The position numbers and the translations under genes are program-made. Source: an uncultured Candidatus Saccharibacteria bacterium (GTDB lineage: Bacteria; Patescibacteriota; UBA1384; XYA2-FULL-43-10; CAINNR01). From it: a stretch of DNA of 64,000 bases. Location: assembly GCA_964626415.1 (NCBI GenBank), contig CAZVFH010000001.1, positions 400-64,399 on the forward strand. The letters are read 5' to 3'. The notes under the pieces are model-generated. The model worked only from the letters and a program-made list of their open reading frames with translations. It did no database searches and was not told where the DNA came from. This document shows, piece by piece, positions 104 through 46,729 of this stretch; position 1 is the first letter of the stretch; each line of letters opens with the position of its first letter.

Positions 104-126
104 AAAAACCTCGATTTCTCGAGGTC
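104..126. terminator. Hairpin ACCTCGA-TTTC-TCGAGGT with an A7 run on its 5' side (stem + T7 when read on the minus strand)
   Basis: Perfect 7-bp stem seen directly. The T-run is only on the minus-strand reading, so it best fits termination of a leftward transcript. It may also stop the upstream + CDS. Confidence 0.4.
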
Positions 127-315
127 AGACAACTTGGTAGTTCGTCTTTCAACAAACTTTCCCACTGGGATTTGTTCCAATTGCCTTGTTATTATTCTTA
201 TCTTATCAAACCCTGCCAAATCTTGTCAATACCCCGATTATTTCATTTCTCTACTGCGCAGCCCGCCTGCCCTGTCTGCCGACAGGCATGTGGCAGGCAG
301 GTATAGAAGTGACAG

Positions 316-404
316 GTGAATCGGCAGTGAATCGGTATATTTTTCACTCGTAAAGTGCTATGATAAAGTCAATGAAAGTGTAAATTCAACAGGGAATAAA
401 TATG
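316..404 (+). promoter_or_regulatory. Repeated promoter/leader module, copy A (upstream of rhuM-like gene)
   Basis: GTGAATCGG..TATATTTTT..AAAGTGCTATGATAAAGTCAATGAAAGTGTAAATTC..GGGAATAAATATG. Contains an extended -10 TGcTATGAT (356-364). A near-identical module recurs at 1790-1907. Confidence 0.45.
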
Positions 405-1427
405 GCTAAAAAAAATAATTTACCTGAGAAAAATCAATTCCTTCTTTACACCACTCCATCCGGCGATGTAAAAATCGGCGTTCTTTATAGAGACGAAACC
501 ATTTGGCTTACTCAGAAAAAAATGGCTGAACTTTTTGGTTGCACGATAGAAAATATTATTCTTCATTTGAAAAATATTTTTAACGAAAATGAATTACTAG
601 AGGCATCAACCACTAAGGATTTCTTAGTAGTTCAAAAAGAAGGAACCAGACAGATAAACCGCACAATTAAGATGTACAATCTCGACGCCATCGTTTCAGT
701 GGGCTACAGAGTTAACTCCGAAAAGGCGACTCATTTCCGAATTTGGGCGACAAAAACTTTACGGGATTTTATCATTAAAGGTTTTATTCTTGATGATGAC
801 CGTCTCAAAAACGGTAGCCATTTTGGCAAAGACTATTTTCGAGAGTTGCTGGAAAGAGTTCACTCGATTAGAGCGAGTGAAAGACGAATTTATCAGCAGA
901 TTACAGATATTTTTGCCGAGTGCAGCATTGATTACAATCCAAGATCCGAAATTACCAAGAATTTTTATGCAATGGTGCAAAATAAATTTCACTATGCCAT
1001 TACCGGACAAACAGCTGCAGAAATAATTTATACCAAGGTCGATAAAAACAAGCCGTTTATAGGGCTCTCGACATGGAAAAATTCACCTAAGGGAAGAATA
1101 TTAAAATCGGACGCACTTGTAGCTAAAAATTATCTTCCGGAAAATAAAATCAAAAAATTAGAAAGAACCGTTTCTGCCTTTTTCGATTACATCGAAAATA
1201 TTATTGAGAACAATCATCTGATGAAAATGGAAGACCTTGCGAAAAGTGTGGATAAATTTCTAAATTTCAACGAATACAAGATTTTAGAAGGCAAAGGGAA
1301 AATATCCCATGAAAAAGCCGAGAAAAAAGCTATCGTTGAATATGACAACTTTAATAAAACCCAAAAAATAGAATCCGATTTTGATCGAGAAATTGTCAGT
1401 AAAATTAAAAAATTAGGAAATAAATAA
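402..1427 (+). CDS. RhuM-family virulence/defence-island protein
   Basis: 341 aa. Has the YNLDAIVSVGYRVNSEKATHFRIWATKTLRDFIIKGF block characteristic of RhuM-family proteins. Confidence 0.75.
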   Translation: MAKKNNLPEKNQFLLYTTPSGDVKIGVLYRDETIWLTQKKMAELFGCTIENIILHLKNIFNENELLEASTTKDFLVVQKEGTRQINRTIKMYNLDAIVSVGYRVNSEKATHFRIWATKTLRDFIIKGFILDDDRLKNGSHFGKDYFRELLERVHSIRASERRIYQQITDIFAECSIDYNPRSEITKNFYAMVQNKFHYAITGQTAAEIIYTKVDKNKPFIGLSTWKNSPKGRILKSDALVAKNYLPENKIKKLERTVSAFFDYIENIIENNHLMKMEDLAKSVDKFLNFNEYKILEGKGKISHEKAEKKAIVEYDNFNKTQKIESDFDREIVSKIKKLGNK

Positions 1428-35497: not shown

Positions 35498-35618
35498 CAC
35501 GCTGATCTTTCACGCTGATGGAACGCTGATACGTTTCATCAGCGAAAATCCGTGTTAAAAATCAGTGTAAGAATATTCCATTATCAATATTAAGTCAGTG
35601 TTAAAAAGTCAGTGTTAG
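35498..35618. repeat. Array of ACGCTGAT / ATCAGCG / (A/G)TCAGTG heptamer words (rpsM-rpsK spacer)
   Basis: 3 x ACGCTGAT, then ATCAGCG, ATCAGTG and 2 x GTCAGTGTTA. Confidence 0.7.
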
Positions 35619-35621
35619 TAT

Positions 35622-36008
35622 ATGGCAACAAAACAAACCAAAAAGAAAAAAAATCTAACCCCGGTCTATTCCGGTTTAGTTTATATTCAATCATCATTCA
35701 ACAACACTATTGTCACCATAGCCGATGAAACTGGAAATGTTATTGCTTGGGCTTCCTCTGGCTCAATTGGGTTCAAGGGCTCAAAGAAATCAACTCCATA
35801 TGCCGCTTCTCTTGCAACTTCGGCTGCTATTGAGAAGGCAAAAATTAGAGGCCTTAAAAAAGTTCAAATTTTCATTTCCGGTGTCGGTAGCGGCCGTGAT
35901 TCTGCCGTCAGGGCCTTTCAAAACGCTAATATTGATGTCGAAATAATTAAAGATATAACACCTGTTCCACACAATGGTTGCAGAAGGAAAAAAGTCCGCA
36001 GAGTGTAA
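35622..36008 (+). CDS. rpsK: 30S ribosomal protein S11
   Basis: ..SSFNNTIVTIADETGNVIAWASSGSIGFKGSKKSTPYAA.. Confidence 0.95.
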   Translation: MATKQTKKKKNLTPVYSGLVYIQSSFNNTIVTIADETGNVIAWASSGSIGFKGSKKSTPYAASLATSAAIEKAKIRGLKKVQIFISGVGSGRDSAVRAFQNANIDVEIIKDITPVPHNGCRRKKVRRV

Positions 36009-36018
36009 TAATAAACTT

Positions 36019-36609
36019 ATGGAAAAAAAATGTCGAAAATGTCGAAAAGAGGGCATTAAGCTAATGTTGAAAGGCGAACGTTGTTCTTCGCCTAAATGTG
36101 CCATTGTTAACAGAAATTATAAGCCGGGCCAGCATGGTCCCGGTGGTTTTTCCAAACTTTCTGAATATGGCAAGCAGCTAAGAGAGAAACAAAAACTTAA
36201 AAGAATATATGGCATTTCGGAAACGCAACTTAAGAATTACTACGCCCTAGCAAATAAAAAAAATGGAAGCACAAGTGAGAATCTAATAATTTTCCTTGAA
36301 ACCAGGCTCGATAGTATTATATACGGACTAGGAATTGGAAAATCACGAAGATCTGCAAGACAAATTGTTAATCACAAGTTTTTAAAACAAAATGGCAAAA
36401 ATATAAACATACCCTCCGCCCGAGTGTCCCAAAATGACAAGATTACTGTCAGTAATGTTAATTTTTTAAAAGATATTAGTGAAAATAGTTTGAACTGGGT
36501 ATCATTTGATAAAAAAACCAGAGAAATCTGGATCAAAAAAATGCCAAGTATTGAAGATATTGATCTTCCTTGTGATATAAATTTAATAATTGAGTATTAT
36601 TCGCGCTAA
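36019..36609 (+). CDS. rpsD: 30S ribosomal protein S4 (Zn-ribbon N-terminus)
   Basis: MEKKCRKCRKEG..CSSPKC..; ..SEYGKQLREKQKLKRIYG. S4 domain present. Confidence 0.93.
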   Translation: MEKKCRKCRKEGIKLMLKGERCSSPKCAIVNRNYKPGQHGPGGFSKLSEYGKQLREKQKLKRIYGISETQLKNYYALANKKNGSTSENLIIFLETRLDSIIYGLGIGKSRRSARQIVNHKFLKQNGKNINIPSARVSQNDKITVSNVNFLKDISENSLNWVSFDKKTREIWIKKMPSIEDIDLPCDINLIIEYYSR

Positions 36610-36624
36610 AAAGAAGGAGAAAAA

Positions 36625-37569
36625 ATGATTAATGAAAATGAAATCCCAAAAGTTATCGAAGACAAAATTTCCGACAACTGCTCAAAATTTGTCATTGAGC
36701 CGCTTTACCCCGGTTACGGTTCAACTATTGGAAACGCCCTGCGGCGCGTTCTTTTGTCCTCTCTTTCAGGGGTCGCGATTACTTATGTCAAGCTTGATGA
36801 AGTAACTCATGAATTTTCCACCATTCCCCATGTTAAGGAAGATATGATGGAGATTATTATGAATTTGCGTCAAATTGTTTTTAAATCTCAGACAAAAGAG
36901 CCGGTAACCATAGAACTTACAGCAAAAGGGGCAAAAAATATTACCGCCGCAGATTTCAAGCCAAACTCAAAGATTGAGATACTAAACCCTGATCAGAAAA
37001 TCGCAACACTTGACAACAAGGCGACATTTAATCTTGAAGTTACCATTGAAAACGGCAGGGGGTTTCAGCCATCTGAAGATAAATCCGTAGACAATTTATC
37101 AATAGGAAAAATTGCTATCGATTCAGTTTTTTCACCGGTAAAACTTGTAAATTTTCATATAGACCGAGCCCGTGTTGGAAAAATGACTAACTATGATAAA
37201 ATTGAGCTTGAAATCAGAACAAATGGTACTGTAACGCCAAAAGAGGCTTTAACTTTTGCTGGAAAAATTCTTGTCGAGTACTTCAGTTTTATCGGAAGCG
37301 GTAAGTCATACGATTTTAATTCTGAACCAGAAATATCAGAACTAATCGGAACAAACACTCAAAGCTCGCAGATTGAAGATATTTCTTGTATTGATCCAAA
37401 AACCAAAATTGAAGAAATCAATCTCTCTGCAAGAACTGTAAATTCATTAGTTAATTCTGGAATTCGAACCATCGCTGGACTCAAACGACTTTCTGATCTT
37501 AAAATATCTGAAATCAAAGGACTTGGGAAAAAAGGATTTCTGGAAATTAAAGAGCTCTTGGGAAGATAA
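36625..37569 (+). CDS. rpoA: DNA-directed RNA polymerase subunit alpha
   Basis: 314 aa. ..FVIEPLYPGYGSTIGNALRRVLLSSL.. and C-terminal HhH ..LSARTVNSLVNSGIRTIAGL. Confidence 0.95.
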   Translation: MINENEIPKVIEDKISDNCSKFVIEPLYPGYGSTIGNALRRVLLSSLSGVAITYVKLDEVTHEFSTIPHVKEDMMEIIMNLRQIVFKSQTKEPVTIELTAKGAKNITAADFKPNSKIEILNPDQKIATLDNKATFNLEVTIENGRGFQPSEDKSVDNLSIGKIAIDSVFSPVKLVNFHIDRARVGKMTNYDKIELEIRTNGTVTPKEALTFAGKILVEYFSFIGSGKSYDFNSEPEISELIGTNTQSSQIEDISCIDPKTKIEEINLSARTVNSLVNSGIRTIAGLKRLSDLKISEIKGLGKKGFLEIKELLGR

Positions 37570-37571
37570 TT

Positions 37572-38096
37572 ATGACAACAAAACTTGGAAGAAAAATTGG
37601 ACACCGAAGATCGTTGTTAAGAAATCTAGCAACTTCATTAGTATTGTACGAAAAAGTTGATACTACTCTGGCTAAGGCAAAAGCCGTAAAACCAATAATC
37701 GATCGAATGATCACTTTATCCAAGTCCAATAGTTTATCTTCATATCGCCATAATCTTTCCTTCTTTTTCGATATAAACGTTTCAAAGAAAATTCGAGACG
37801 AACTTACAAAACGCTATGAAAAAAGAATGAGTGGATTTACAAAAATTTACCACACAGGTAACCGGCTTGGTGACAATGCAAAAATGGCCCGAATCGAACT
37901 AGTTGACAGAAAAGTATTTTCTCTAAAACCGCAAAAAACAACAGCTGACGACAAAGAAAAAGAAATCAAAAAAACGCCTTTGGAAAAAATTTCCAAAAAA
38001 TTTAATAAATTTGAAGATCAGGCAAAAACGGAAATTAAAAAAGGTGTTGTAACTAAAATTAGAACCAATACCAGACAAAAGATAGGTGACAAATGA
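37572..38096 (+). CDS. rplQ: 50S ribosomal protein L17 (long C-terminal extension)
   Basis: GRKIGHRRSLLRNLATSLVLYEKVDTTLAKAKAVKP. Confidence 0.92.
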   Translation: MTTKLGRKIGHRRSLLRNLATSLVLYEKVDTTLAKAKAVKPIIDRMITLSKSNSLSSYRHNLSFFFDINVSKKIRDELTKRYEKRMSGFTKIYHTGNRLGDNAKMARIELVDRKVFSLKPQKTTADDKEKEIKKTPLEKISKKFNKFEDQAKTEIKKGVVTKIRTNTRQKIGDK

Positions 38097-38485
38097 CAAA
38101 AATCAGCAACAATATTTATCTGTTTGACGCAAGCGAAAAACCGCTTGGGCGCTTTGCGAGTAAAGCGGCTGGAATTTTGCGGGGAAAAAATTTAGTTGAT
38201 TTTGCTCCAAACCATGTTCCTGATAATATCGTAGTAATCATTAACGCCAATAAGGTTTTTTTAACTGGTCGTAAAGAAGAATCAAAGCAATACTTTCATC
38301 ATACGAATCACCCTGGGGGGATAAAATCGAGAAGTTTTTCCGTACTTAAGAAAAATTCACCGGAGGAGATTATCAAATTAGCAATAAGGCGAATGTTGCC
38401 AAACAATCGCTTAACTTCGGATCTGATGAAAAACTTAAAAATCTTCTCCGGAGTTGATCATCCTTACAAAGAAATAAATAAATAA
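38093..38485 (+). CDS. rplM: 50S ribosomal protein L13
   Basis: ..DASEKPLGRFASKAAGILRGKN..VVIINA..HHTNHPGG. Confidence 0.92.
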   Translation: MTKISNNIYLFDASEKPLGRFASKAAGILRGKNLVDFAPNHVPDNIVVIINANKVFLTGRKEESKQYFHHTNHPGGIKSRSFSVLKKNSPEEIIKLAIRRMLPNNRLTSDLMKNLKIFSGVDHPYKEINK

Positions 38486-38492
38486 TATCCAA

Positions 38493-38879
38493 ATGATTGA
38501 AAAAGAACCAAAAGTAAAATATTTCTATGGCACCGGACGACGCAAAACCTCTGTTGCGCGAGTCCGGGTTTTTCCAGGCAGTGGAAATATTATGCTTAAT
38601 TCTAAAAAAGTCGAACTTTCAAAAACAACACTGATGCCGCTGTCGCTTGTTAGTAAATTGGAATCAATAGACCTCTCAATAGTAACTTCTGGCGGAGGAA
38701 AAACCGGGCAAGAGATCGCAATGCGACATGGTATTTCAAGAGCACTTGTTGTAATGAACCCAGAATATCGCCCGACTTTAAAAAAAGCCGGATTCCTCAC
38801 TCGCGACCCGAGAGAAGTCGAAAGAAAGAAACCAGGACTGAAAAAAGCACGTCGCGCTCCACAGTGGTCGAAACGTTAA
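38493..38879 (+). CDS. rpsI: 30S ribosomal protein S9
   Basis: YGTGRRKTSVARVRV ... RKKPGLKKARRAPQWSKR*. Confidence 0.95.
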   Translation: MIEKEPKVKYFYGTGRRKTSVARVRVFPGSGNIMLNSKKVELSKTTLMPLSLVSKLESIDLSIVTSGGGKTGQEIAMRHGISRALVVMNPEYRPTLKKAGFLTRDPREVERKKPGLKKARRAPQWSKR

Positions 38880-38881
38880 AT

Positions 38882-39018
38882 TAACACTGATTTTTTTTCA
38901 CTGACTTAACACTGACGATTGTAAAATATTGAAGTAAAAACTTCCACAGATCTATTTTCACCGATAAACACAGATGATTCTATCAGTGACGATCTGTGAC
39001 GATAGATCAGTGAGAGTT
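38882..39018. repeat. Array of CACTGA(T/C) and CACAGAT words followed by their complements ATCAGTG / ATCTGTG (rpsI-rbfA spacer)
   Basis: 3 x CACTGA, 2 x CACAGAT, then ATCAGTGAC, ATCTGTGAC, ATCAGTGAG. Confidence 0.7.
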
Positions 39019-39059
39019 TATACTTCCTTGTTTTATATCAGTAATTTCGTAGGTGAACT

Positions 39060-39332
39060 ATGTCCCGGAGAATAGAAAAAATTAACGAGCTAATTTTACA
39101 CAATCTTTCCGAGATTCTTTTTTTTGAGTATCCGGGAAATATGATTACTATTCTTTCAGTTTTCACTTCTCCTGATCTTTCAAGTGCAAAGATTTTTGTT
39201 AACCTATCCGATTCAATCTTAAAATTCGAAACATTAAACGCAAACACAAAGCATCTGCGCTATATTCTGGCACAAAAAATTTCTCTCCGCAAAACCCCAG
39301 AGTTAATATTTATTGATTGTAGTGAAAAATAA
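39060..39332 (+). CDS. rbfA: Ribosome-binding factor A (short)
   Basis: MSRRIEKINELILHNLSEIL..ITILSVFTSPDLSSAKIFV..LRKTPELIF. Confidence 0.8.
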   Translation: MSRRIEKINELILHNLSEILFFEYPGNMITILSVFTSPDLSSAKIFVNLSDSILKFETLNANTKHLRYILAQKISLRKTPELIFIDCSEK

Positions 39333-39408
39333 ATAGTTATTGATTTGCAATTTAGCAACAATAAATGTATATTTACAGCAGGATCGGCGAAAACAATTAA
39401 AAAGTTTT

Positions 39409-40182
39409 ATGGAAGAATTTGATAAAAAAATTTACAACCGAAGAGCGATGAGTTCTGAGAAAGCCAGTGAAGTAAAAAGGGAGGGTCACGCCGCTGAATC
39501 AGAATTTGCCAAAATTATTGACGGAAAAATTTACTCCAGCGGTAGAAAAAAAGACGTTGTTGATAAAAAAGGTGATCTTCACTCCGTAAAAAGCGGCGAT
39601 CAAAAATGGCAGATTTTTTTATTTGGCGGTGCTAGGTTTCAAAAAGAAATTGATTTTCAAGCATCTGATTTATTGCTTGAATGCATAAAATGTTTTCCAA
39701 TAAAACGGGAAGATTATTTAAAAAATAAAGTGATATTCAAAAAGCGCCTCAGCAAAAAAATGAATGCGCTGAAAAAATATCTTTGCTCGGGACGTAATAA
39801 ATTAATATTTTTCAAAAAATCTTTTCTCAATAACGGCGAAGTGGACTATATTACTGTCAAAGAAGGTCGGATATTTCATGTATTTGACGGAGAAGAAGTA
39901 ATAAATTTACTCGATCATGCGACAGAAGTTGTAAATTCTACTGCTAGAAGAATCGATCAATTTGACAACCAAAAAGTTGTTTTTAAATTAAAAGGTGCTG
40001 AAACATTAGGTGAAGTTGAAATGAGAAATGATAGCGATATCCATTACAGGGAATTAAAATTTTGGGTCAGTCGACCAAAAATGTTGTCTCTTCTTATAGA
40101 AAATATTTTTCCATTAAAAAAGTGTTTTAATAATAGAATCTTTGTTTACGGTAAAGCAACAAAAAAATTTAAAGAACTATAA
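39409..40182 (+). CDS. Putative type II restriction endonuclease (PD-(D/E)xK-like), partner of the convergent LexA-Dam gene
   Basis: 257 aa from ATG 39409 (the track ORF opens at 39340). Has ..EGHAAESEFAKII.. then ..DVVDKKGDLHSVKSGDQKWQIFLFGG.. (D..D..SVK nuclease-like core). The 3' ends of the two genes overlap by 6 nt. Function is inferred mainly from context. Confidence 0.4.
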   Translation: MEEFDKKIYNRRAMSSEKASEVKREGHAAESEFAKIIDGKIYSSGRKKDVVDKKGDLHSVKSGDQKWQIFLFGGARFQKEIDFQASDLLLECIKCFPIKREDYLKNKVIFKKRLSKKMNALKKYLCSGRNKLIFFKKSFLNNGEVDYITVKEGRIFHVFDGEEVINLLDHATEVVNSTARRIDQFDNQKVVFKLKGAETLGEVEMRNDSDIHYRELKFWVSRPKMLSLLIENIFPLKKCFNNRIFVYGKATKKFKEL

Positions 40183-41712
40183 TTTTGGCGGACAATAAAT
40201 GATCAATTCATGGGACTCTTTTATGTGATTGTCTCCGTTTTTAATCCTGTTTTTGCCTATCCTTGTTTCACCTTGGCCCATTGTATACTGCCAAGTCGGG
40301 AAAAAATGGTCATAATCTTTATAGTAATCTAGTATTGTCGGGCAATTATTGTAAGATAATATAAATCCGCCTTTATGCTTTTTTAAAATATCTCTCAATT
40401 CTTCATGCGGAAAACCGTCGTGATGAACAGGAATATTTCTCATCGGATAAATTCCCCTAAACATTTTTGAGTCCGAACCGATATAATATGGCGGATCGCA
40501 ATACAAGAAATCGTTTTGGTGCTTTTTAAGAATATCTCTAAAATCAGCACATTTGACTTTTAAATTTCCCGGCTGAAAATCCCTAATTTTTTCAATCATT
40601 TTGATATATTTTTTTTGGTCTAAATAAATATCTGATGACCAACCCATAAACCCCGGGCCATATGATAAGTTAAAATTATAAACATAATATACGGCCAAAG
40701 TCAGAGGGTCGAGCTTTCTCTCGCCTCTCCAGACCTGATTCAAAATTTTGCGAATTTCCTCAAATTGTTTTTTGTTTGGTTTTAATAATTTTAATTTTTC
40801 GCAAAGTAATTGCGGATTTTCTATCTGGAAATTCCAATAGTTACATAAAATATCAAAAATATCATATCCGATAACTTCCAACCCCAAATATTTACTCATT
40901 GCAATTTCTATAGACCCGCCACCAAAAAATGGCGAGACAACTTTTTTGACTGACTCAGGTAAAAGTTCAATTACATGACCGACTGCCAAACTTTTTCCGC
41001 CGGCATATCTTATCGGTGAAAGTGCGACTCTTTTATATTTATTTTGACTTTCCGGATTTTTGCTTTTAATTTTTTCTAAAAATTCTTGTTTTCTTGTAGA
41101 TAATAAATTTTTATTACTATATTCTAAATTTCTGATAATTTTTACAACAACTCCTCTGATTTCAATTTCTTTAAAAAATAAAGGAAGCGTATTTTGATTG
41201 GCGGGCTGAAGTTTGATTAGATTTTTTTCCCGATAAAATTTTTTCAAAGTTGCTTCGTTTTCATTGACAATTGCAACAACGGTTTCTCCATTATCTGCAT
41301 ATGCTTGATTTTTTATCACGACAATATCTCCATTAAAAATTCCTTCCTCAATCATGCTGTCGCCTTTTACGCGGAGTGCGTAATAATTTGATGATGATGA
41401 AAGATCTTTTTGCGAAACAGCGACTGAAAATTCTTTTGTTTCAATTGCTTCAATCGGGAATCCAGCGGCAATAGTTCCGGAAATTGGGATATTGATAACA
41501 TTTTCTTGGTGAGTGGCATTTATTGCTCGCGGTTTATTTTCTTCTTTGTCAAGAAGTCCCATATTCTGCAAATTTGAAATATGAAAATGGGCGGTAGAAA
41601 CCGAAGAAAATTTAAATTTATTTTTTATTTCTTCCAAAGAAGGCGCGTAGTCGTGTTTATTTTGAAAAAAAATAATAAAATCAAGTATTTCTTTTTGTCG
41701 TTTTGAGATCAT
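40177..41712 (-). CDS. Fusion protein: full-length LexA (wHTH + S24 autopeptidase) joined to a Dam-class (alpha, D12) N6-adenine DNA methyltransferase
   Basis: 511 aa from MISKRQKEIL (GGAGGG SD). LexA cleavage site IAAGFPI, Ser motif VKGDSM, Lys motif EATLKKF. Then SPIRYAGGKS, SPFFGGGSIE (motif I) and LYCDPPYY (motif IV), all in one uninterrupted ORF. Confidence 0.8.
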   Translation of the reverse strand: MISKRQKEILDFIIFFQNKHDYAPSLEEIKNKFKFSSVSTAHFHISNLQNMGLLDKEENKPRAINATHQENVINIPISGTIAAGFPIEAIETKEFSVAVSQKDLSSSSNYYALRVKGDSMIEEGIFNGDIVVIKNQAYADNGETVVAIVNENEATLKKFYREKNLIKLQPANQNTLPLFFKEIEIRGVVVKIIRNLEYSNKNLLSTRKQEFLEKIKSKNPESQNKYKRVALSPIRYAGGKSLAVGHVIELLPESVKKVVSPFFGGGSIEIAMSKYLGLEVIGYDIFDILCNYWNFQIENPQLLCEKLKLLKPNKKQFEEIRKILNQVWRGERKLDPLTLAVYYVYNFNLSYGPGFMGWSSDIYLDQKKYIKMIEKIRDFQPGNLKVKCADFRDILKKHQNDFLYCDPPYYIGSDSKMFRGIYPMRNIPVHHDGFPHEELRDILKKHKGGFILSYNNCPTILDYYKDYDHFFPTWQYTMGQGETRIGKNRIKNGDNHIKESHELIIYCPPKL

Positions 41713-42049
41713 AATTTCCCTCCATTTATTTTCCATTTTAACTAATTATATCACAACAACTGGAAAATAAATAGAAAATAACAAGTTATATATTTTGTCA
41801 GTTCGGTATTGAATAATTTCTTATTCTAATTCAAATGATATTGACAAAAAGAATTAAATTATAATACAATATGAATGCCAGTAAAGGCAGGAAGGTTTGA
41901 TCAACCTTCGACTAAACTCGATTCCATCGTGTTAAATGGTCGACACAACTGCGTAATAAAGGATAGTGTCTAATAGGTGTTTTGCAAGCTATAAGTCCAA
42001 TTCCTTCCGGAGAAGTTGGCCCGCTGAACAGAGCCCGAAAAAGCACTAG

Positions 42050-42078
42050 AAAAACCCTTCGCGCGCGGAGGGTTTTTC
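42050..42078 (+). terminator. Strong intrinsic terminator inside the rmuC leader (ACCCTTCG-CGCG-CGGAGGGT + T5)
   Basis: 8-bp GC-rich stem, 4-nt loop and a T-run at 42073-42077. Lies 36 nt upstream of the rmuC ATG. Confidence 0.65.
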
Positions 42079-42113
42079 GTGAGGTTAATATAAATTATAA
42101 CATGGAGGAAATC

Positions 42114-43232
42114 ATGAACACATTATTAATAATAATCGTTGTTGTGTTGTTGTTTATCGCGCTTTATTTGTGGCAAAAAAATCAAAAGCCGGATATAAAA
42201 AATGAAATTGAAGACAAAATCGCGAAAGTTGCCAGTGAAGCTTTAAAAAGTAATTCGGAACAATTTATAACCTTGGCTAAAGAAATCCTGGGGTCAGAAA
42301 AAAAAGAAATCAAAACAGAATTGGAGGGAAAAAAATTATTGATAAATGAATTAGTAAAAGAGATCCGTGAAGATATTAGAAAAAATGAGAATAGAGTGCG
42401 ACAAAGTGATGATGATAGAATTAAATCCTACTCCTCCTTAAAACAAGAATTGGAAAGTTACAAACAAGTAACTGGCGAATTAAAATTAAGTACCGAAAAG
42501 TTAAAAAGTCTTCTTTCAAATAATCAATTGAGGGGCGCATTTGGGGAACAAATTGCAGAAAATTTGCTTAAAATGTCAGGGTTTGTTATTGGACAGGATT
42601 ATTTTAAAAATACCTCACAATCCGATGAAGGAACTCGTCCGGATTTTACGATTTTACTTCCAGATAAAACAAAAATTAATGTTGACGCAAAGTTCCCGTA
42701 TGCGTCTCTTGTAAAATCGATTGAAGCCCAAGATACCGAAGAAAAGAAAAAACATTTTACTAACTTTAAACAAGATGTGAAAGAAAAAATCAAACAAGTT
42801 TGCACCAGAAATTATATTAATCCTGAAGAAAAAACCGTTGATTTTGTTATCCTTTTTATTCCAAATGAAATGATTTTCAGTTACATTTATGAAAACATGA
42901 ACGAAATTTGGGAAGAGGGTATGAGGAAAAAAGTTATACTCACTGGACCATTTAGCTTCACGGCTATTCTTAGAATGGTTAGACAAGCGCACACCAACTT
43001 TAGATACCAGGAAAATTTACACCATATAGTTGGTCTAGTCCAAAAATTTGATGAGGAGTACCAAAAGTATTCTGGAGCTGTAGATGTTTTGGGTGATAGA
43101 ATTATTTCGGCTCAAAAACAATTTGATCACGTATCCAACACTAGGAGTCGGCAATTGACAACCGTAGTAGATAAAATAAAAAACCAAAGTTTAATCGAAG
43201 AGAAAAAGCCTGAAAAACTCATAGAGGACTAA
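42114..43232 (+). CDS. rmuC: DNA recombination protein RmuC
   Basis: Start MNTLLIIIVVVLLF (GGAGGA SD). N-terminal TM, long coiled coil, and nuclease-like core ..RPDFTILLPDKTKINVDAKFPYASL.. Confidence 0.85.
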   Translation: MNTLLIIIVVVLLFIALYLWQKNQKPDIKNEIEDKIAKVASEALKSNSEQFITLAKEILGSEKKEIKTELEGKKLLINELVKEIREDIRKNENRVRQSDDDRIKSYSSLKQELESYKQVTGELKLSTEKLKSLLSNNQLRGAFGEQIAENLLKMSGFVIGQDYFKNTSQSDEGTRPDFTILLPDKTKINVDAKFPYASLVKSIEAQDTEEKKKHFTNFKQDVKEKIKQVCTRNYINPEEKTVDFVILFIPNEMIFSYIYENMNEIWEEGMRKKVILTGPFSFTAILRMVRQAHTNFRYQENLHHIVGLVQKFDEEYQKYSGAVDVLGDRIISAQKQFDHVSNTRSRQLTTVVDKIKNQSLIEEKKPEKLIED

Positions 43233-43342
43233 TTTGTAAAATTATCAGAAATTATGTCTGAAAAAATTGTCATTTCACTCTGACAACGGCATTTTTGCCT
43301 TTTTCTTTAATTTTGCAACTATTTCTGCTACAATTACAATGT

Positions 43343-43732
43343 ATGGTAAAATTGAAAGCCAAACTATTTTTTATCTCAACGATCTTTCTTTTTTCGTTGG
43401 CTTCTTTAATTTTAGCAATTTTTAACTATAATCCGTTTACTGCTGATAAAAGCGTTTTCTATTTATTTTATACCTCATTTTACTTAACCATTACCGGTAT
43501 AATATTTTTTATTCTGATTTTTATCAGATCACGGCTATCCTCCGGATTAAATACTATCATGATTGTTCCGATTTTAAGAATATCCGCATTGATTGGAATC
43601 TGCGCTACATTACTTTTATTGCTTTCAGGCCTAAAGGTTTTAGATATTTGGGTTGCAGTTCCAATTGTATTCGCAATTTTACTCCTTGAATTCTTTTTTA
43701 GATCAAATAAAACAAAAAAATATGAAAAATAA
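43343..43732 (+). CDS. Hypothetical multi-pass membrane protein
   Basis: About 129 aa with 4 hydrophobic helices. Overlaps the pheS start by 11 nt. Confidence 0.45.
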   Translation: MVKLKAKLFFISTIFLFSLASLILAIFNYNPFTADKSVFYLFYTSFYLTITGIIFFILIFIRSRLSSGLNTIMIVPILRISALIGICATLLLLLSGLKVLDIWVAVPIVFAILLLEFFFRSNKTKKYEK

Positions 43733-44405
43733 AGGATCATACCATCCAATTACGAAATTTTTACGCAAATCAATAGAATTTTTTATTGATCTTGGTTTTG
43801 ATGTTTATGAGGGAGTCGAAATCGACAGTGAAAAATATAATTTTGATCTTTTAAACGTTCCTGCTGACCATCCCTCGCGCGATGTCCAAGACACTTTTTG
43901 GCTCACGGATGGCCGTCTTTTGCGCACTCAAACATCAAATGCCCAAGTTCGTTACGGTGAGAATCACAAACCACCAATTAAAGTTGTTTCACCCGGTGTT
44001 TGCTATCGAAACGAAGCAACTGATGCCGGTCATGAAACAACTTTTGTTCAGCTCGAGGGCCTTTATATTGATAAAAATGTTTCACTTGCCCAACTTTACT
44101 GGATTTTAAATCAATTTTATAAACATATTTATGGCAATGATGTCGAAATACGTTTTCGACCTCATCACTTTCCGTATACTGAACCAAGCATAGAATTTGA
44201 AATGAAATTTAACGATCACTGGTTTGAGCTTGGTGGTGCCGGAATGGTTCACCCAAAAGTTATCAAGAATATGGGGATTGATCCAGAAAAGTATTCCGGT
44301 TTTGCCTTTGGGCCGGGAATAGAGCGACCAATAATGATCAAATATGGAATTTCCGACATTAGAATTATGCGCTGTGGTGATCTTAGATTTTTGAAACAAT
44401 TCTAA
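43722..44405 (+). CDS. pheS: Phenylalanine--tRNA ligase alpha subunit (short form, catalytic core only)
   Basis: MKNKGSYHPITKF..DLLNVPADHPSRDVQDTFWL..FRPHHFPYTEPS..GAGMVHP. About 227 aa, lacking the N-terminal coiled-coil arm. Confidence 0.9.
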   Translation: MKNKGSYHPITKFLRKSIEFFIDLGFDVYEGVEIDSEKYNFDLLNVPADHPSRDVQDTFWLTDGRLLRTQTSNAQVRYGENHKPPIKVVSPGVCYRNEATDAGHETTFVQLEGLYIDKNVSLAQLYWILNQFYKHIYGNDVEIRFRPHHFPYTEPSIEFEMKFNDHWFELGGAGMVHPKVIKNMGIDPEKYSGFAFGPGIERPIMIKYGISDIRIMRCGDLRFLKQF

Positions 44406-44470
44406 CTACGCTTTCAACTACACTGATTTTAAGCACTGATTAGACGCTGATAAATACATAAAAATACAAT

Positions 44471-46729
44471 ATGAATATTAAGATTTCTAAAAATTGGCTG
44501 GAAGATTTTATTAGAATTCCATATTCCGACGACGAACTGGCGGAACGGCTTTCTCTTTCCGGAACATTAGTTGAAAAAATTGAAAACCCGTTTAACAACA
44601 TTGTGGTTTCTAAAATCAAAAAAATTTCACTGCACCCCAATGCCGACAAGCTTTCTGTTGTTTCGGTTTTTGATGGACACAAAGAAAGAGTTATTGTTTG
44701 TGGCGCAAAGAATATCGAGGTTGGTCAGATTGTTCCGCTTGCATTACCGGGAGCAATAATTTGCGGAAATGAGATCAAAGAAACAGAAATTAGGGGAGTT
44801 AACTCCTCTGGAATGCTTTGTTCGGCGTATGAACTTGGTATCAGCAACGATCAAAGTGGAATTTTAATTTTAGACGATAGTACTAAAATCGGCGAAAAAT
44901 TATCAAAATATCTCGATGCTGACACGATTTTTGATTTAGAAATTACACCAAACCGCGGTGATTGCTTGTCGCACCTAGGAGTCGCTCGAGAAATTTCCGC
45001 CCTTTTAAAAACTAATTTGAGTAGGAAGCCAATTAACCTTAAAATGACAGGTAAAAAAATCCAATCAATTTTAGATTTAGAGGTCAAGGATGCCGCACTA
45101 TGCCCGACATACGTTGCTAGAGCATTGGAAAATGTCAAAATTTCCGATTCTCCTGAGTGGCTTAAGAAACGCTTAATCTCCTGCGGTATTGAACCAATTA
45201 ACAATGTCGTTGATGTTACAAATTATATTTTACTTGATCTTGGTCAGCCAATGCACGCTTTTGATCTTGAAAAAATTAAAGGTAAAAGAATTATTGTCAG
45301 ATGTGCTAAAAAAAGCGAAAAGATCAGATCTTTTGATGGTACAAATTTAAGACTTGAAAAAAATGATTTGATAATTGCTGACGGCGAAAAACCAATTGCC
45401 ATTGCCGGCATAGTCGGCGGGATTGATTCCGGGATTTCCGAATCAACTACATCAATTGTTTTGGAGGCCGCATCATTTTCTCCAAAATCAGTCAGAGCAA
45501 CATCCAAACGACTTGGAATCAAAACCGATGCTTCGATGAGATTCGAGCGCGGAGTTGACCCAAATCTTGCTCTTTATGCAATAGATAAAGCGGCAAAAAT
45601 GATTTCTGAAATTTCTGGCGCAATTATATTTTCTGGCGTTTTAAAACATAAAGTCGACTCCTCAGAGACAAAAATTAGATTTGAATATGACAAAATTAAC
45701 AACTTACTCGGAACCAAAATTTCTGAAAGTGAAATGATTGAAATTCTGAAACGACTTAATTTCAAGATTGAAAAGAATTTTGTAATTGTCCCTAGCTTTC
45801 GACCCGATGTTACAATCTGGCAGGATTTAGCTGAGGAAATTATTCGATTGCATGGAATCAACAATCTAAAATCTCTAGCGGTTGAAAAAACTAAAACCAC
45901 AAACAACACGGAATATTTTTACAAAGAAATTATTAAAGATATATTCGTCGAATTTGGTTTTTCTGAAAGCTACAATTACTCCTTTATATCTGACAACGAT
46001 TGCGAAATTTTCAATATTGATAAAAAGAATTTAGTTAAAGTAGCAAACCCTTTGGTTCCGGAAAATCACTTTATGCGAAATTCTCTTCTTTTCGGACTTC
46101 TGAAAAATATAGCTAAAAATCCTTCATTTAACAATATTATGATTTTTGAAATTGGAAAAGTATTCAACAAAGCCGGAGAAAAATTTTATTTAGGAGCTAT
46201 TGTTAGCGGCAAAGATGCAACAGAAAACTTAAAAAAAACTGTTGCACAACTAGAAAACCAATTTTCTTTTGAGAAAAAAATTATTGAAATTAATTCTTCA
46301 GATCTTTTGAAATATAAAATTAAAAGAAACAGTATTTCATATTTAGAAATTGATTTGTCTCTCGTTGCAAAATCCTTTGTCGGAAATGCTAATAGCCTTA
46401 AAATTAAAAAAGCAAATTTTGATATTGTCTATCGTGATATTTCAAAATTTCCTTCCGTAGTCCGCGATCTTGCTTTTATTGTCTCGGAAAAGATAAAGTC
46501 AGAGGATGTTGAAAGTGAAATTAAAAAAAATTCAAAATATGTAATAATTTCCGAGCCGTTTGATGAATTTAAATCAGATAAATTTGGAGTAGGCAAAAAG
46601 AATTTAGCTTATCATATTCACTTGCAAGCCGAAGACCGAACTCTAAAAGATACGGAAGCAGAAACCGAGATTAGAAATATCATAAAAAATATTGAAAAAA
46701 TGTTTAATGCAAAATTAAGAAATTATTAG
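44471..46729 (+). CDS. pheT: Phenylalanine--tRNA ligase beta subunit
   Basis: 752 aa. MNIKISKNWLEDFI.. (tRNA-binding OB), B3/4 and B5 regions, and C-terminal anticodon-binding-like domain. Confidence 0.92.
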   Translation: MNIKISKNWLEDFIRIPYSDDELAERLSLSGTLVEKIENPFNNIVVSKIKKISLHPNADKLSVVSVFDGHKERVIVCGAKNIEVGQIVPLALPGAIICGNEIKETEIRGVNSSGMLCSAYELGISNDQSGILILDDSTKIGEKLSKYLDADTIFDLEITPNRGDCLSHLGVAREISALLKTNLSRKPINLKMTGKKIQSILDLEVKDAALCPTYVARALENVKISDSPEWLKKRLISCGIEPINNVVDVTNYILLDLGQPMHAFDLEKIKGKRIIVRCAKKSEKIRSFDGTNLRLEKNDLIIADGEKPIAIAGIVGGIDSGISESTTSIVLEAASFSPKSVRATSKRLGIKTDASMRFERGVDPNLALYAIDKAAKMISEISGAIIFSGVLKHKVDSSETKIRFEYDKINNLLGTKISESEMIEILKRLNFKIEKNFVIVPSFRPDVTIWQDLAEEIIRLHGINNLKSLAVEKTKTTNNTEYFYKEIIKDIFVEFGFSESYNYSFISDNDCEIFNIDKKNLVKVANPLVPENHFMRNSLLFGLLKNIAKNPSFNNIMIFEIGKVFNKAGEKFYLGAIVSGKDATENLKKTVAQLENQFSFEKKIIEINSSDLLKYKIKRNSISYLEIDLSLVAKSFVGNANSLKIKKANFDIVYRDISKFPSVVRDLAFIVSEKIKSEDVESEIKKNSKYVIISEPFDEFKSDKFGVGKKNLAYHIHLQAEDRTLKDTEAETEIRNIIKNIEKMFNAKLRNY

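Follow-up and report, generated by a model that had tools for sequence, protein, structure and literature searches.

A LexA-type repressor joined to a D12-class DNA methyltransferase in Patescibacteria, a putative damage-sensing controller of type II restriction-modification

Introduction

Among described systems, the nearest in function to the locus analysed here are the methyltransferases of the M.SsoII type and the C proteins, two kinds of regulator of restriction-modification (R-M) genes, and the nearest by sequence is LexA, the repressor of the SOS response. The locus lies in a window of 64,000 nucleotides (nt) from an uncultured Candidatus Saccharibacteria bacterium (assembly GCA_964626415.1, contig CAZVFH010000001.1, positions 400 to 64,399; all coordinates below are those of this window, and related loci fetched for comparison carry L numbers). 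Here, one minus-strand gene encodes a LexA protein that continues directly into a D12-class DNA adenine methyltransferase, and a putative restriction endonuclease gene converges on it. An earlier sequence-only reading of this DNA had drawn attention to the fusion and proposed that it links R-M control to DNA damage.

N-terminal autoregulatory helix-turn-helix (HTH) domains are established for M.SsoII, M.EcoRII and M.MspI. In these enzymes, as in M.ScrFIA, an N-terminal DNA-binding domain represses the methylase's own promoter and couples the level of methylase to the control of the R-M genes, which is also what we predict for the fusion. The fusion differs in carrying the whole of LexA, that is, a winged HTH (wHTH) plus an S24 protease/dimerisation domain with intact catalytic residues. 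Its predicted operator is a direct repeat and not a palindrome as in the M.SsoII type, and its nuclease gene, which is convergent, lacks an operator of its own.

The C proteins (C.PvuII, C.AhdI, C.Esp1396I) are likewise dedicated regulators encoded with the R-M genes, have their operator in the system's promoter, and time the appearance of methylase against that of nuclease; unfused lexA–methylase–nuclease operons related to our locus (L230) even share the gene order of C-led operons. However, C proteins are Xre-type HTH dimers without a protease domain or any known damage input, and they usually control the nuclease gene, whereas the box described below stands before lexA or lexA–methylase genes and before none of 53 partner genes. 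Members of the C-protein family have an Xre-type HTH, a length of ~80–100 amino acids (aa) and C-box palindromes upstream of the C or R gene; here we find a LexA-type regulator and a direct repeat at the methylase promoter. By these features, the LexA part of the fusion appears to work like a controller without being a member of the C-protein family.

With canonical LexA (that of E. coli, that of Thermotoga maritima with structure 3K2Z, and the alphaproteobacterial type) the fusion shares the domain pair, the cleavage site, the Ser/Lys dyad and an autoregulatory box, and its direct-repeat box resembles the alphaproteobacterial GTTC-N7-GTTC type. It differs from canonical LexA in being joined to, or in relatives operonic with, a DNA methyltransferase and in belonging to a separate clade; moreover, its box was not observed at repair genes in the loci fetched, in which SOS genes are hardly sampled.

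Two further systems are comparable in their outcome. In type I restriction alleviation, ClpXP degrades HsdR after damage, and restriction of self-DNA is temporarily relieved once damage or its repair has left unmodified sites, which is the outcome that we propose here; there, the nuclease subunit undergoes proteolysis, whereas the present proposal is transcriptional, relies on a methylase-borne repressor that cleaves itself, and concerns a type II system. We know of no general equivalent of this ClpXP-based alleviation for type II systems, and how these avoid killing their own cell after damage, repair or a shortfall of methylase is poorly understood. In the DpnII system of S. pneumoniae, the methylase DpnA is induced in competence; a regulon of stress or development thereby protects DNA from restriction that it would otherwise suffer, as would happen here. 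There, a separate gene is controlled in trans by the sigma factor ComX, with neither fusion nor self-cleavage.

Results

A complete LexA followed by a complete methyltransferase

The fusion gene occupies 40177..41712 on the minus strand and encodes 511 aa plus a stop in a single uninterrupted frame, as the sequence-only reading had it. In the list of open reading frames (ORFs) the frame is longer (40177..41736, minus strand; 519 aa), being counted from 41736, where an earlier ATG lies in frame. Sequence signals point to the second ATG (41712) as the real start, because a GGAGG (41719-41723) precedes it by 6 nt and because homologues are 508–524 aa long.

Three domains are matched in Pfam, all above their gathering cut-offs. 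The wHTH DNA-binding domain (residues 3–63; 41524..41706, minus strand) matches LexA_DNA_bind (PF01726, 3.7e-13, 49.5 bits against a cut-off of 23.7; residues 11–71 in the numbering of the 519-aa frame), and the S24 peptidase or dimerisation domain (residues 76–190; 41143..41487, minus strand) matches Peptidase_S24 (PF00717, 1.4e-27, 96 bits; 84–198 in 519-aa numbering). The D12-class N6-adenine DNA methyltransferase is complete and includes its own N-terminal extension (residues ~205–511; 40180..41100, minus strand); it matches MethyltransfD12 (PF02086, 7.6e-31, 108 bits; 244–486 in 519-aa numbering), and the PADLOC model MTase_II (PDLC03281) matches residues 213–513 (1.3e-106). At full length, the LexA half scores as a lexA equivalog (NCBIfam TIGR00498, 171.8 bits against a cut-off of 110.95, model positions 4–202 of 203), and the closest solved structure is the full-length T. 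maritima LexA 3K2Z (E=2e-33 over residues 3–196). The AlphaFold (AF2) model of the full-length fusion, with a predicted local distance difference test score (pLDDT) of 76.7, has a helical wHTH (residues 4–66 form three helices and a beta hairpin), a beta-rich S24 domain and a Rossmann-type methyltransferase. The assignments of the S24 and D12 domains that had been put forward for checking are therefore upheld by the profile searches in Pfam and NCBIfam.

The functional residues can be read from the DNA, all on the minus strand. The scissile bond Ala83-Gly84 is encoded by GCT GGA at 41461..41466, Ser119 by 41356-41358 and Lys157 by 41242-41244, and these align with A84-G85, S119 and K156 of E. 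coli LexA. Together with the profile matches, they confirm each of the LexA hallmarks (wHTH, Ala-Gly, Ser, Lys) that had been recognised by eye. In the methyltransferase, the S-adenosylmethionine-binding motif I (FxGxG, here FFGGGS, 40912-40929) and the catalytic motif IV (DPPY, 40486-40497) are present in the order typical of D12 enzymes.

As judged by alignment with relatives, LexA reaches its natural C-terminus and the complete methyltransferase comes directly after it, with no added linker. What had been described as a linker of about 35 aa is the native N-terminal extension of this methyltransferase family, since stand-alone relatives share it. The methyltransferase had also been called a Dam/D12 enzyme, of which the D12 class stands and the Dam label does not: the Dam equivalog TIGR00571 scores 54.4 bits against a cut-off of 114.85, and GATC specificity is therefore not implied. 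The window shows no depletion of GATC (ratio 0.90), and a search for the recognition sequence through k-mer avoidance found no informative depletion within the 64 kb.

Conservation of the fusion and of its cleavage residues

A search over 5.8 billion proteins, clustered at 90% identity, recovered the same three-domain protein in at least 120 clusters, with lengths of 508–524 aa and identities of 66–75%. These come from independent NCBI, JGI, ENA and Logan assemblies, and the named sources are Berkelbacteria, Wolfebacteria and ‘Patescibacteria group’. Other LexA–methyltransferase fusions, for which the sequence-only reading had suggested a search, thus exist in number. They also settle whether an assembly error or frameshift might have joined separate lexA and dam genes at the domain junction. 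A few relatives do carry lexA and the methyltransferase as separate adjacent genes, which is what such an artefact would start from, but the uninterrupted 508–524-aa protein occurs in over 120 independent clusters, drawn from four sources of data. The junction region is conserved, and 19 further loci were fetched. The artefact is refuted by these data, and we give it practically no chance.

Residues required for cleavage and for methylation are conserved alike. Across 120 fusions of the same family, Ala-Gly, GxSM and TLKK are conserved, as are the motifs of the methyltransferase. This D12-fusion family shows no variation at Gly84; Ala83 does not vary in a set of 16 sequences and is at least 90% conserved in a set of 40, and FFGGGS and DPPY are invariant in 40 homologues. 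The comparison extends to fusions of five methyltransferase classes, with about 50% sequence divergence, among which Ala-Gly and Lys are found in 86 of 86 sequences and Ser in 84 of 86; unfused LexAs keep Ala-Gly and Lys as well (25/25).

The methyltransferase half also has stand-alone relatives. That of Caldimicrobium thiodismutans (331 aa) is 55% identical over 300 aa, and those of Pelagibacteraceae (SAR11; ~320–340 aa) are 72–77% identical, N-terminal extension included. The SAR11 enzyme was found in about 30 Pelagibacteraceae species representatives (L001-L029, L045); in L003 (5944-6966, plus strand) typA/bipA and groEL flank it and no nuclease gene adjoins, and it looks like an orphan methylase. 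The strikingly high identity between the SAR11 and the patescibacterial enzymes suggests either that the gene was transferred horizontally or that constraint on it is very strong. The SAR11 methylomes in the literature were considered as a source of specificity and set aside, as they treat the GANTC/GAWTC enzyme of the CcrM type and not this D12 enzyme.

Database records name the fusion proteins merely ‘LexA’ or ‘DNA adenine methylase’. In agreement with the sequence-only reading, whose author knew of no LexA–methyltransferase fusion, we found no description of one in the searchable literature; the study of the patescibacterial SOS network by Sanchez-Osuna, Barbe and Erill (2017, Environ Microbiol 19:3465) may hold a prior mention.

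A LexA clade associated with R-M genes

A profile of the LexA half was run over JGI metagenomes, which gave at least 533 confirmed stretches, and, together with an earlier genome scan, at least 115 LexA-bearing ORFs, mostly of 480–830 aa. Among the matches listed, the C-terminal part belongs to the N6_N4_Mtase group at 46 loci, to the present D12 family at 19, to the C5 group (DNA_methylase) at 12, to the gamma-N6/TaqI_C group (N6_Mtase/Eco57I/TaqI_C) at five, to a second D12 family at three and to singletons at a few. By these profile matches, a LexA clade in Patescibacteria is fused to, or operonic with, at least five unrelated methyltransferase families. On two contigs (L089, L101), two different fusions occur together.

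A tail-to-tail ORF of 150–350 aa abuts or overlaps the 3' end of nearly every fusion. Curated families of type II endonucleases are matched by seven of 20 downstream neighbours (MvaI/BcnI, BsoBI, MamI, Bsp6I twice, TaqI and BglII), and an eighth such partner, of the HinfI family, occurs in an operon of lexA, N6_N4 methyltransferase and endonuclease. The closest unfused LexAs, of 196 aa, are 55–61% identical to the LexA half of the window; in all three cases looked up, they are the first gene of an R-M operon, and four further loci are the same. In one of these operons (L230), lexA, methylase and nuclease genes are co-directional.

In a rough neighbour-joining tree, all fused and operonic LexAs fall into one clade, and all 16 of the complete LexAs outside it, including that of Berkelbacteria in L046, have no link to a methyltransferase. 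The methyltransferase classes are interleaved inside the clade, and the LexA half of the window reaches 67% identity with LexAs attached to other classes and 63% with those of its own class; LexA and methyltransferase modules have therefore exchanged partners.

At some loci with a LexA–methyltransferase fusion (L093, 3835-4893, plus strand; L123; L143, 2129-2935, plus strand), the fusion is followed by a co-directional second D12 methyltransferase and there is no convergent nuclease gene, an arrangement that resembles two-methylase systems such as DpnII.

A predicted direct-repeat operator

The promoters of the clade share a direct repeat with a period of 11 bp, TTTCTAT-N4-TTTCTAT, which we predict to be the operator. 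In 111 upstream regions set side by side its consensus is CTTTCTATTTATTTTCTATT, with the variants TTTCGGT and TTTCGAT. It stands either immediately 5' of a TATAAT or TATACT, or, reversed (TCGAAAATAAATCGAAAG), just 3' of it; the reversed form downstream of the -10 is found in many loci. We built a position weight matrix (PWM) from the direct-repeat sites and took matches of at least 17 bits as strong. The matrix finds a box in 91 of 106 non-redundant upstream regions of related LexA genes, those of operonic lexA genes included, and in the 785 kb of fetched loci, where SOS genes are hardly sampled, 88 of 90 strong matches lie directly upstream of a LexA gene. The box is absent upstream of the convergent partner genes (0/53). 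Before stand-alone methylase genes of the same D12 family there is none either, apart from one weak match of 14.8 bits ~350 nt upstream in L147.

In the window, the only strong match is the predicted box A (TTTTCTATTTATTTTCCAGT, 41759..41778, minus strand; 19.7 bits, 0.17 expected), a TTTC-N7-TTTC direct repeat over the -35 position of the fusion promoter. A weaker inverted copy, the predicted box B (CCCTCCATTTATTTTCCATT, 41718..41737, plus strand; 11.8 bits), lies downstream of the -10 and ahead of the start codon, where it overlaps the Shine-Dalgarno sequence, and a predicted extended -10, TGaTATAAT, is read from the sequence between the two boxes (41745..41753, minus strand). Boxes A and B form an inverted repeat of 18 nt (89%). 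Autoregulation through an operator in its own promoter is a defining feature of LexA, and a candidate box of this kind is present in 91 of 106 related promoters, box A being unique in the 64 kb. The distant LexAs without a methyltransferase link carry GTTC-N7-GTTC-like repeats upstream, and boxes of this direct-repeat form are established for Alphaproteobacteria (PMC8565304).

The sequence-only reading had instead nominated as operator a 12-bp palindrome at 41778-41789, ATAACAAGTTAT, which adjoins box A. The element exists; it is, however, a 5-2-5 dyad (ATAAC-AA-GTTAT) and not a perfect 12-mer palindrome. With at most one mismatch it has three hits in the window against 0.76 expected, a number reached in 6 of 100 shuffles, and it does not figure among the elements that are conserved or enriched in related upstream regions. 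It is neither significantly over-represented nor conserved and probably not the operator, for which the direct repeat is the better candidate. A second dyad, TATACT-N3-AGTATA, was rejected: it is the -10 region abutting the direct-repeat box and has no significant match in the window.

Two observations on these upstream regions stand apart. One of the only two strong matches that do not lie at a LexA gene is at L065 663-682 (minus strand; 19.7 bits), 95 nt upstream of a 134-aa ORF (164-568, minus strand) without a Pfam match, which is possibly an additional member of the regulon. In addition, of 106 LexA or LexA–methyltransferase genes (upstream regions from L030-L144), 57 have in the 200 nt before them a perfect 9-mer like a DnaA box, TGTGGATAA, whose reverse complement is TTATCCACA; shuffles give 0.6. 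It stands mostly in one orientation, at a median of 78 nt before the start codon and just 5' of the LexA box. It could reflect co-regulation by DnaA or be a lineage-specific promoter element, and it is not present in the window at 41713-41912.

The distribution of clade and box bears on whether the fusion is simply the global SOS repressor of its cell, next to which an R-M cassette landed at the 3' end of lexA, the methylase being a passenger or a selfish hitch-hiker. The equivalog score of the LexA half, the lack of a second lexA in the 64-kb window and the shuffling of the two modules would all fit such a history. Against it, some contigs carry two fusions, the 16 complete LexAs outside the clade are all unlinked to methyltransferases and have different boxes, and the box is almost confined to LexA gene starts in the 785 kb of flanks, in which SOS genes are hardly represented. 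A synteny test for a native lexA with an inserted cassette also failed, in that the neighbours of the window's cassette were not found beside LexA genes elsewhere. We regard this history as quite improbable. Within the window, neither recA nor a second strong box was found.

The convergent partner gene

The partner of the fusion is a 257-aa ORF (39409..40182, plus strand; 244 aa if the start is Met14, at 39448). As had been described, it converges on the fusion gene with an overlap of 6 nt at the 3' ends (40177-40182). Its product has 197 homologues, all of them without Pfam domains, and searches of Pfam, NCBIfam, PADLOC and PDB sequences gave no match. The AF2 model is confident (pLDDT 92.3), and a Foldseek search of it against the PDB returned nothing significant, the best hit being R.HhaI (E=0.04, template-modelling score 0.21). 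The nuclease-like core that had been read into this protein was thus not confirmed at the level of fold.

Gene neighbourhood is more informative. In four of four contexts without a fusion (Caldimicrobium, two metagenome lineages and one Patescibacteria metagenome-assembled genome), a homologue of the 257-aa protein adjoins a stand-alone 315–331-aa D12 methyltransferase of the same family. Because its homologues always adjoin this methyltransferase family, whether fused to LexA or not, we consider the 257-aa protein the putative restriction partner of the D12 methyltransferase, from a putative, uncharacterised nuclease family. Of the type II R-M pair originally proposed, then, the pairing gains from this obligate adjacency and from the endonuclease partners of the sister fusions, and the nuclease fold of the partner itself is the part that gained no confirmation.

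Most other members of the D12-fusion family carry an unrelated convergent ORF of 179 aa (RIYIITQDGIIKKIGGS...; L060 6534-7073 and L062 6542-7081, both minus strand, and six more D12-fusion loci), which is conserved, has no Pfam hit and is reminiscent of GIY-YIG by its sequence. It probably encodes another nuclease that serves the same methylase. That methylases of one specificity have different nucleases as partners is the usual picture, which the 257-aa and 179-aa partners would match.

Surroundings of the cassette

The cassette sits among core genes (window 35600-46700), with rpsK-rpsD-rpoA-rplQ-rplM-rpsI-rbfA on one side and rmuC-pheS-pheT on the other, and no mobile-element genes were seen in this interval. 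A compositional island was considered and set aside, as the G+C content of the cassette (0.30–0.34 against 0.33–0.39 in the flanks) dips slightly and is not decisive; a phage origin was set aside as well, there being one close hit only in IMG/VR. Between the fusion gene and rmuC lies a candidate small RNA of ~200 nt (~41877-42080, plus strand), divergent from the fusion gene. It has a predicted promoter at 41841-41870 (TTGACA-18-TACAAT, 11 of 12 consensus matches) and a strong terminator hairpin at 42049-42078 followed by a T-run, with a fold z-score of -2.67; it has no Rfam match, even at E<=1. The ORF listed at 41982..43232 is RmuC, whose start is probably further in, at about 42102 (MEEIMN...). 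Elsewhere in the window, Rfam identifies a DUF3800-II RNA motif (123-192, minus strand; 71.8 bits against a gathering score of 43.2).

Discussion

The reading that we favour, and hold to be on balance probable, is that the locus is a type II R-M system in which the LexA-type N-terminus is the controller, and an autorepressed methylase promoter is opened by RecA-stimulated self-cleavage. In this model, the S24 domain would dimerise the fusion protein, and the dimer would bind box A and box B on either side of its own -10. Occupancy of the boxes would keep transcription of the methylase low and self-limited. When RecA filaments form on single-stranded DNA, whether through ordinary damage or because the system's own nuclease cuts an under-methylated chromosome, the Ser119/Lys157 dyad would cut Ala83-Gly84. 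Cleavage would free the DNA-binding domain and leave an S24–methylase fragment with a complete catalytic domain; the promoter would open and more methylase would be made.

The same event may lower the amount of nuclease. There is no terminator-like site at the junction of the methylase and nuclease genes, and the minus-strand ones (39237-39302) appear only a short way past the nuclease gene's 5' end. On these grounds, methylase transcription is predicted to run into the tail-to-tail nuclease gene as antisense, so that less nuclease would be made. The net effect would be a damage-triggered restriction alleviation or an autoimmunity feedback, and when the system enters a naive cell, this wiring would produce the order ‘methylase first, nuclease later’.

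The case for a real damage input rests mainly on the strict conservation of residues needed solely for cleavage. It is this observation that also decides how seriously to take a simpler possibility, in which the LexA module is a borrowed dimeric DNA-binding domain and acts, like a C protein or the M.SsoII N-terminus, as an autorepressor that sets methylase level and nuclease timing with no response to damage. Such an autorepressor would be in keeping with a box at the methylase promoter only and with the precedent of M.SsoII, M.EcoRII and M.MspI; nor would loss of cleavage be expected to remove S24, which is also the dimerisation domain of LexA. If cleavage were dispensable, however, the residues that serve catalysis alone should have drifted in some lineages, yet Ala-Gly and Lys are invariant and Ser is kept in 84 of 86 fusions, and we think a pure autorepressor unlikely.

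A different outcome of cleavage would be suicide triggered by damage: cleavage would expose degrons, the methylase fragment would be destroyed, and a stable nuclease would kill the damaged or phage-infected cell, following the logic of abortive infection or of toxin-antitoxin modules. R-M systems do behave as addiction modules, the fragments of E. coli LexA are degraded by ClpXP and Lon after cleavage, and the new C-terminus here would be ...Ile-Ala-Ala. This ...AA degron, however, would lie on the small N-terminal fragment and not on that of the methylase; cleavage would also derepress the promoter and so replace the methylase, and existing methylation persists as long as there is no replication. 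We rate this scenario as very improbable.

Several points tell against the damage-sensing controller that we favour. Its dependence on RecA is an assumption drawn from residue conservation, and the promoter and the antisense read-through are predictions; a scan for consensus promoters did not list the -10 of the fusion gene, whose -35 is poor. The Foldseek search described above gave the putative nuclease no significant structural match. In the co-directional operon of L230, derepression would raise the nuclease too, and the antisense element would therefore not be general. The clade was delimited by a neighbour-joining tree without bootstrap support, and in one member (L111) the LexA is followed by a glycosyltransferase and not by a methyltransferase, so that the association is not absolute.

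More tentatively, and as a possibility to which we give somewhat less than even weight, the clade as a whole may have been recruited in Patescibacteria to sense damage and to control type II R-M systems in response. RecA filaments, arising from self-restriction or from other DNA damage, would trigger cleavage of the LexA–methylase; a burst of methylase would follow, together with antisense silencing of the convergent nuclease, and the module would be portable between unrelated methyltransferases.

What appears to be new here is the use of a complete SOS repressor of the self-cleaving type as an R-M controller, one that seems portable over at least five methyltransferase families and to act through a direct-repeat operator. 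The R-M-dedicated LexA clade is large and seemingly undescribed. As the proteins are small and look soluble, and the predicted operator is defined, E. coli can serve for tests of binding, autocleavage and methylation, and the organism itself need not be cultured.

The findings also advise caution in studies of the SOS regulon in the candidate phyla radiation: most ‘LexA’ genes retrieved by homology lie in R-M modules, and the box of an R-M-clade LexA may not report on the housekeeping SOS network. If the proposed circuit is true, it would form a direct molecular link between the sensing of DNA damage and the control of R-M, and add a new class of R-M controller beside the C proteins and the SsoII-like HTH domains. 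Its loop would both sense autoimmunity and repair it.

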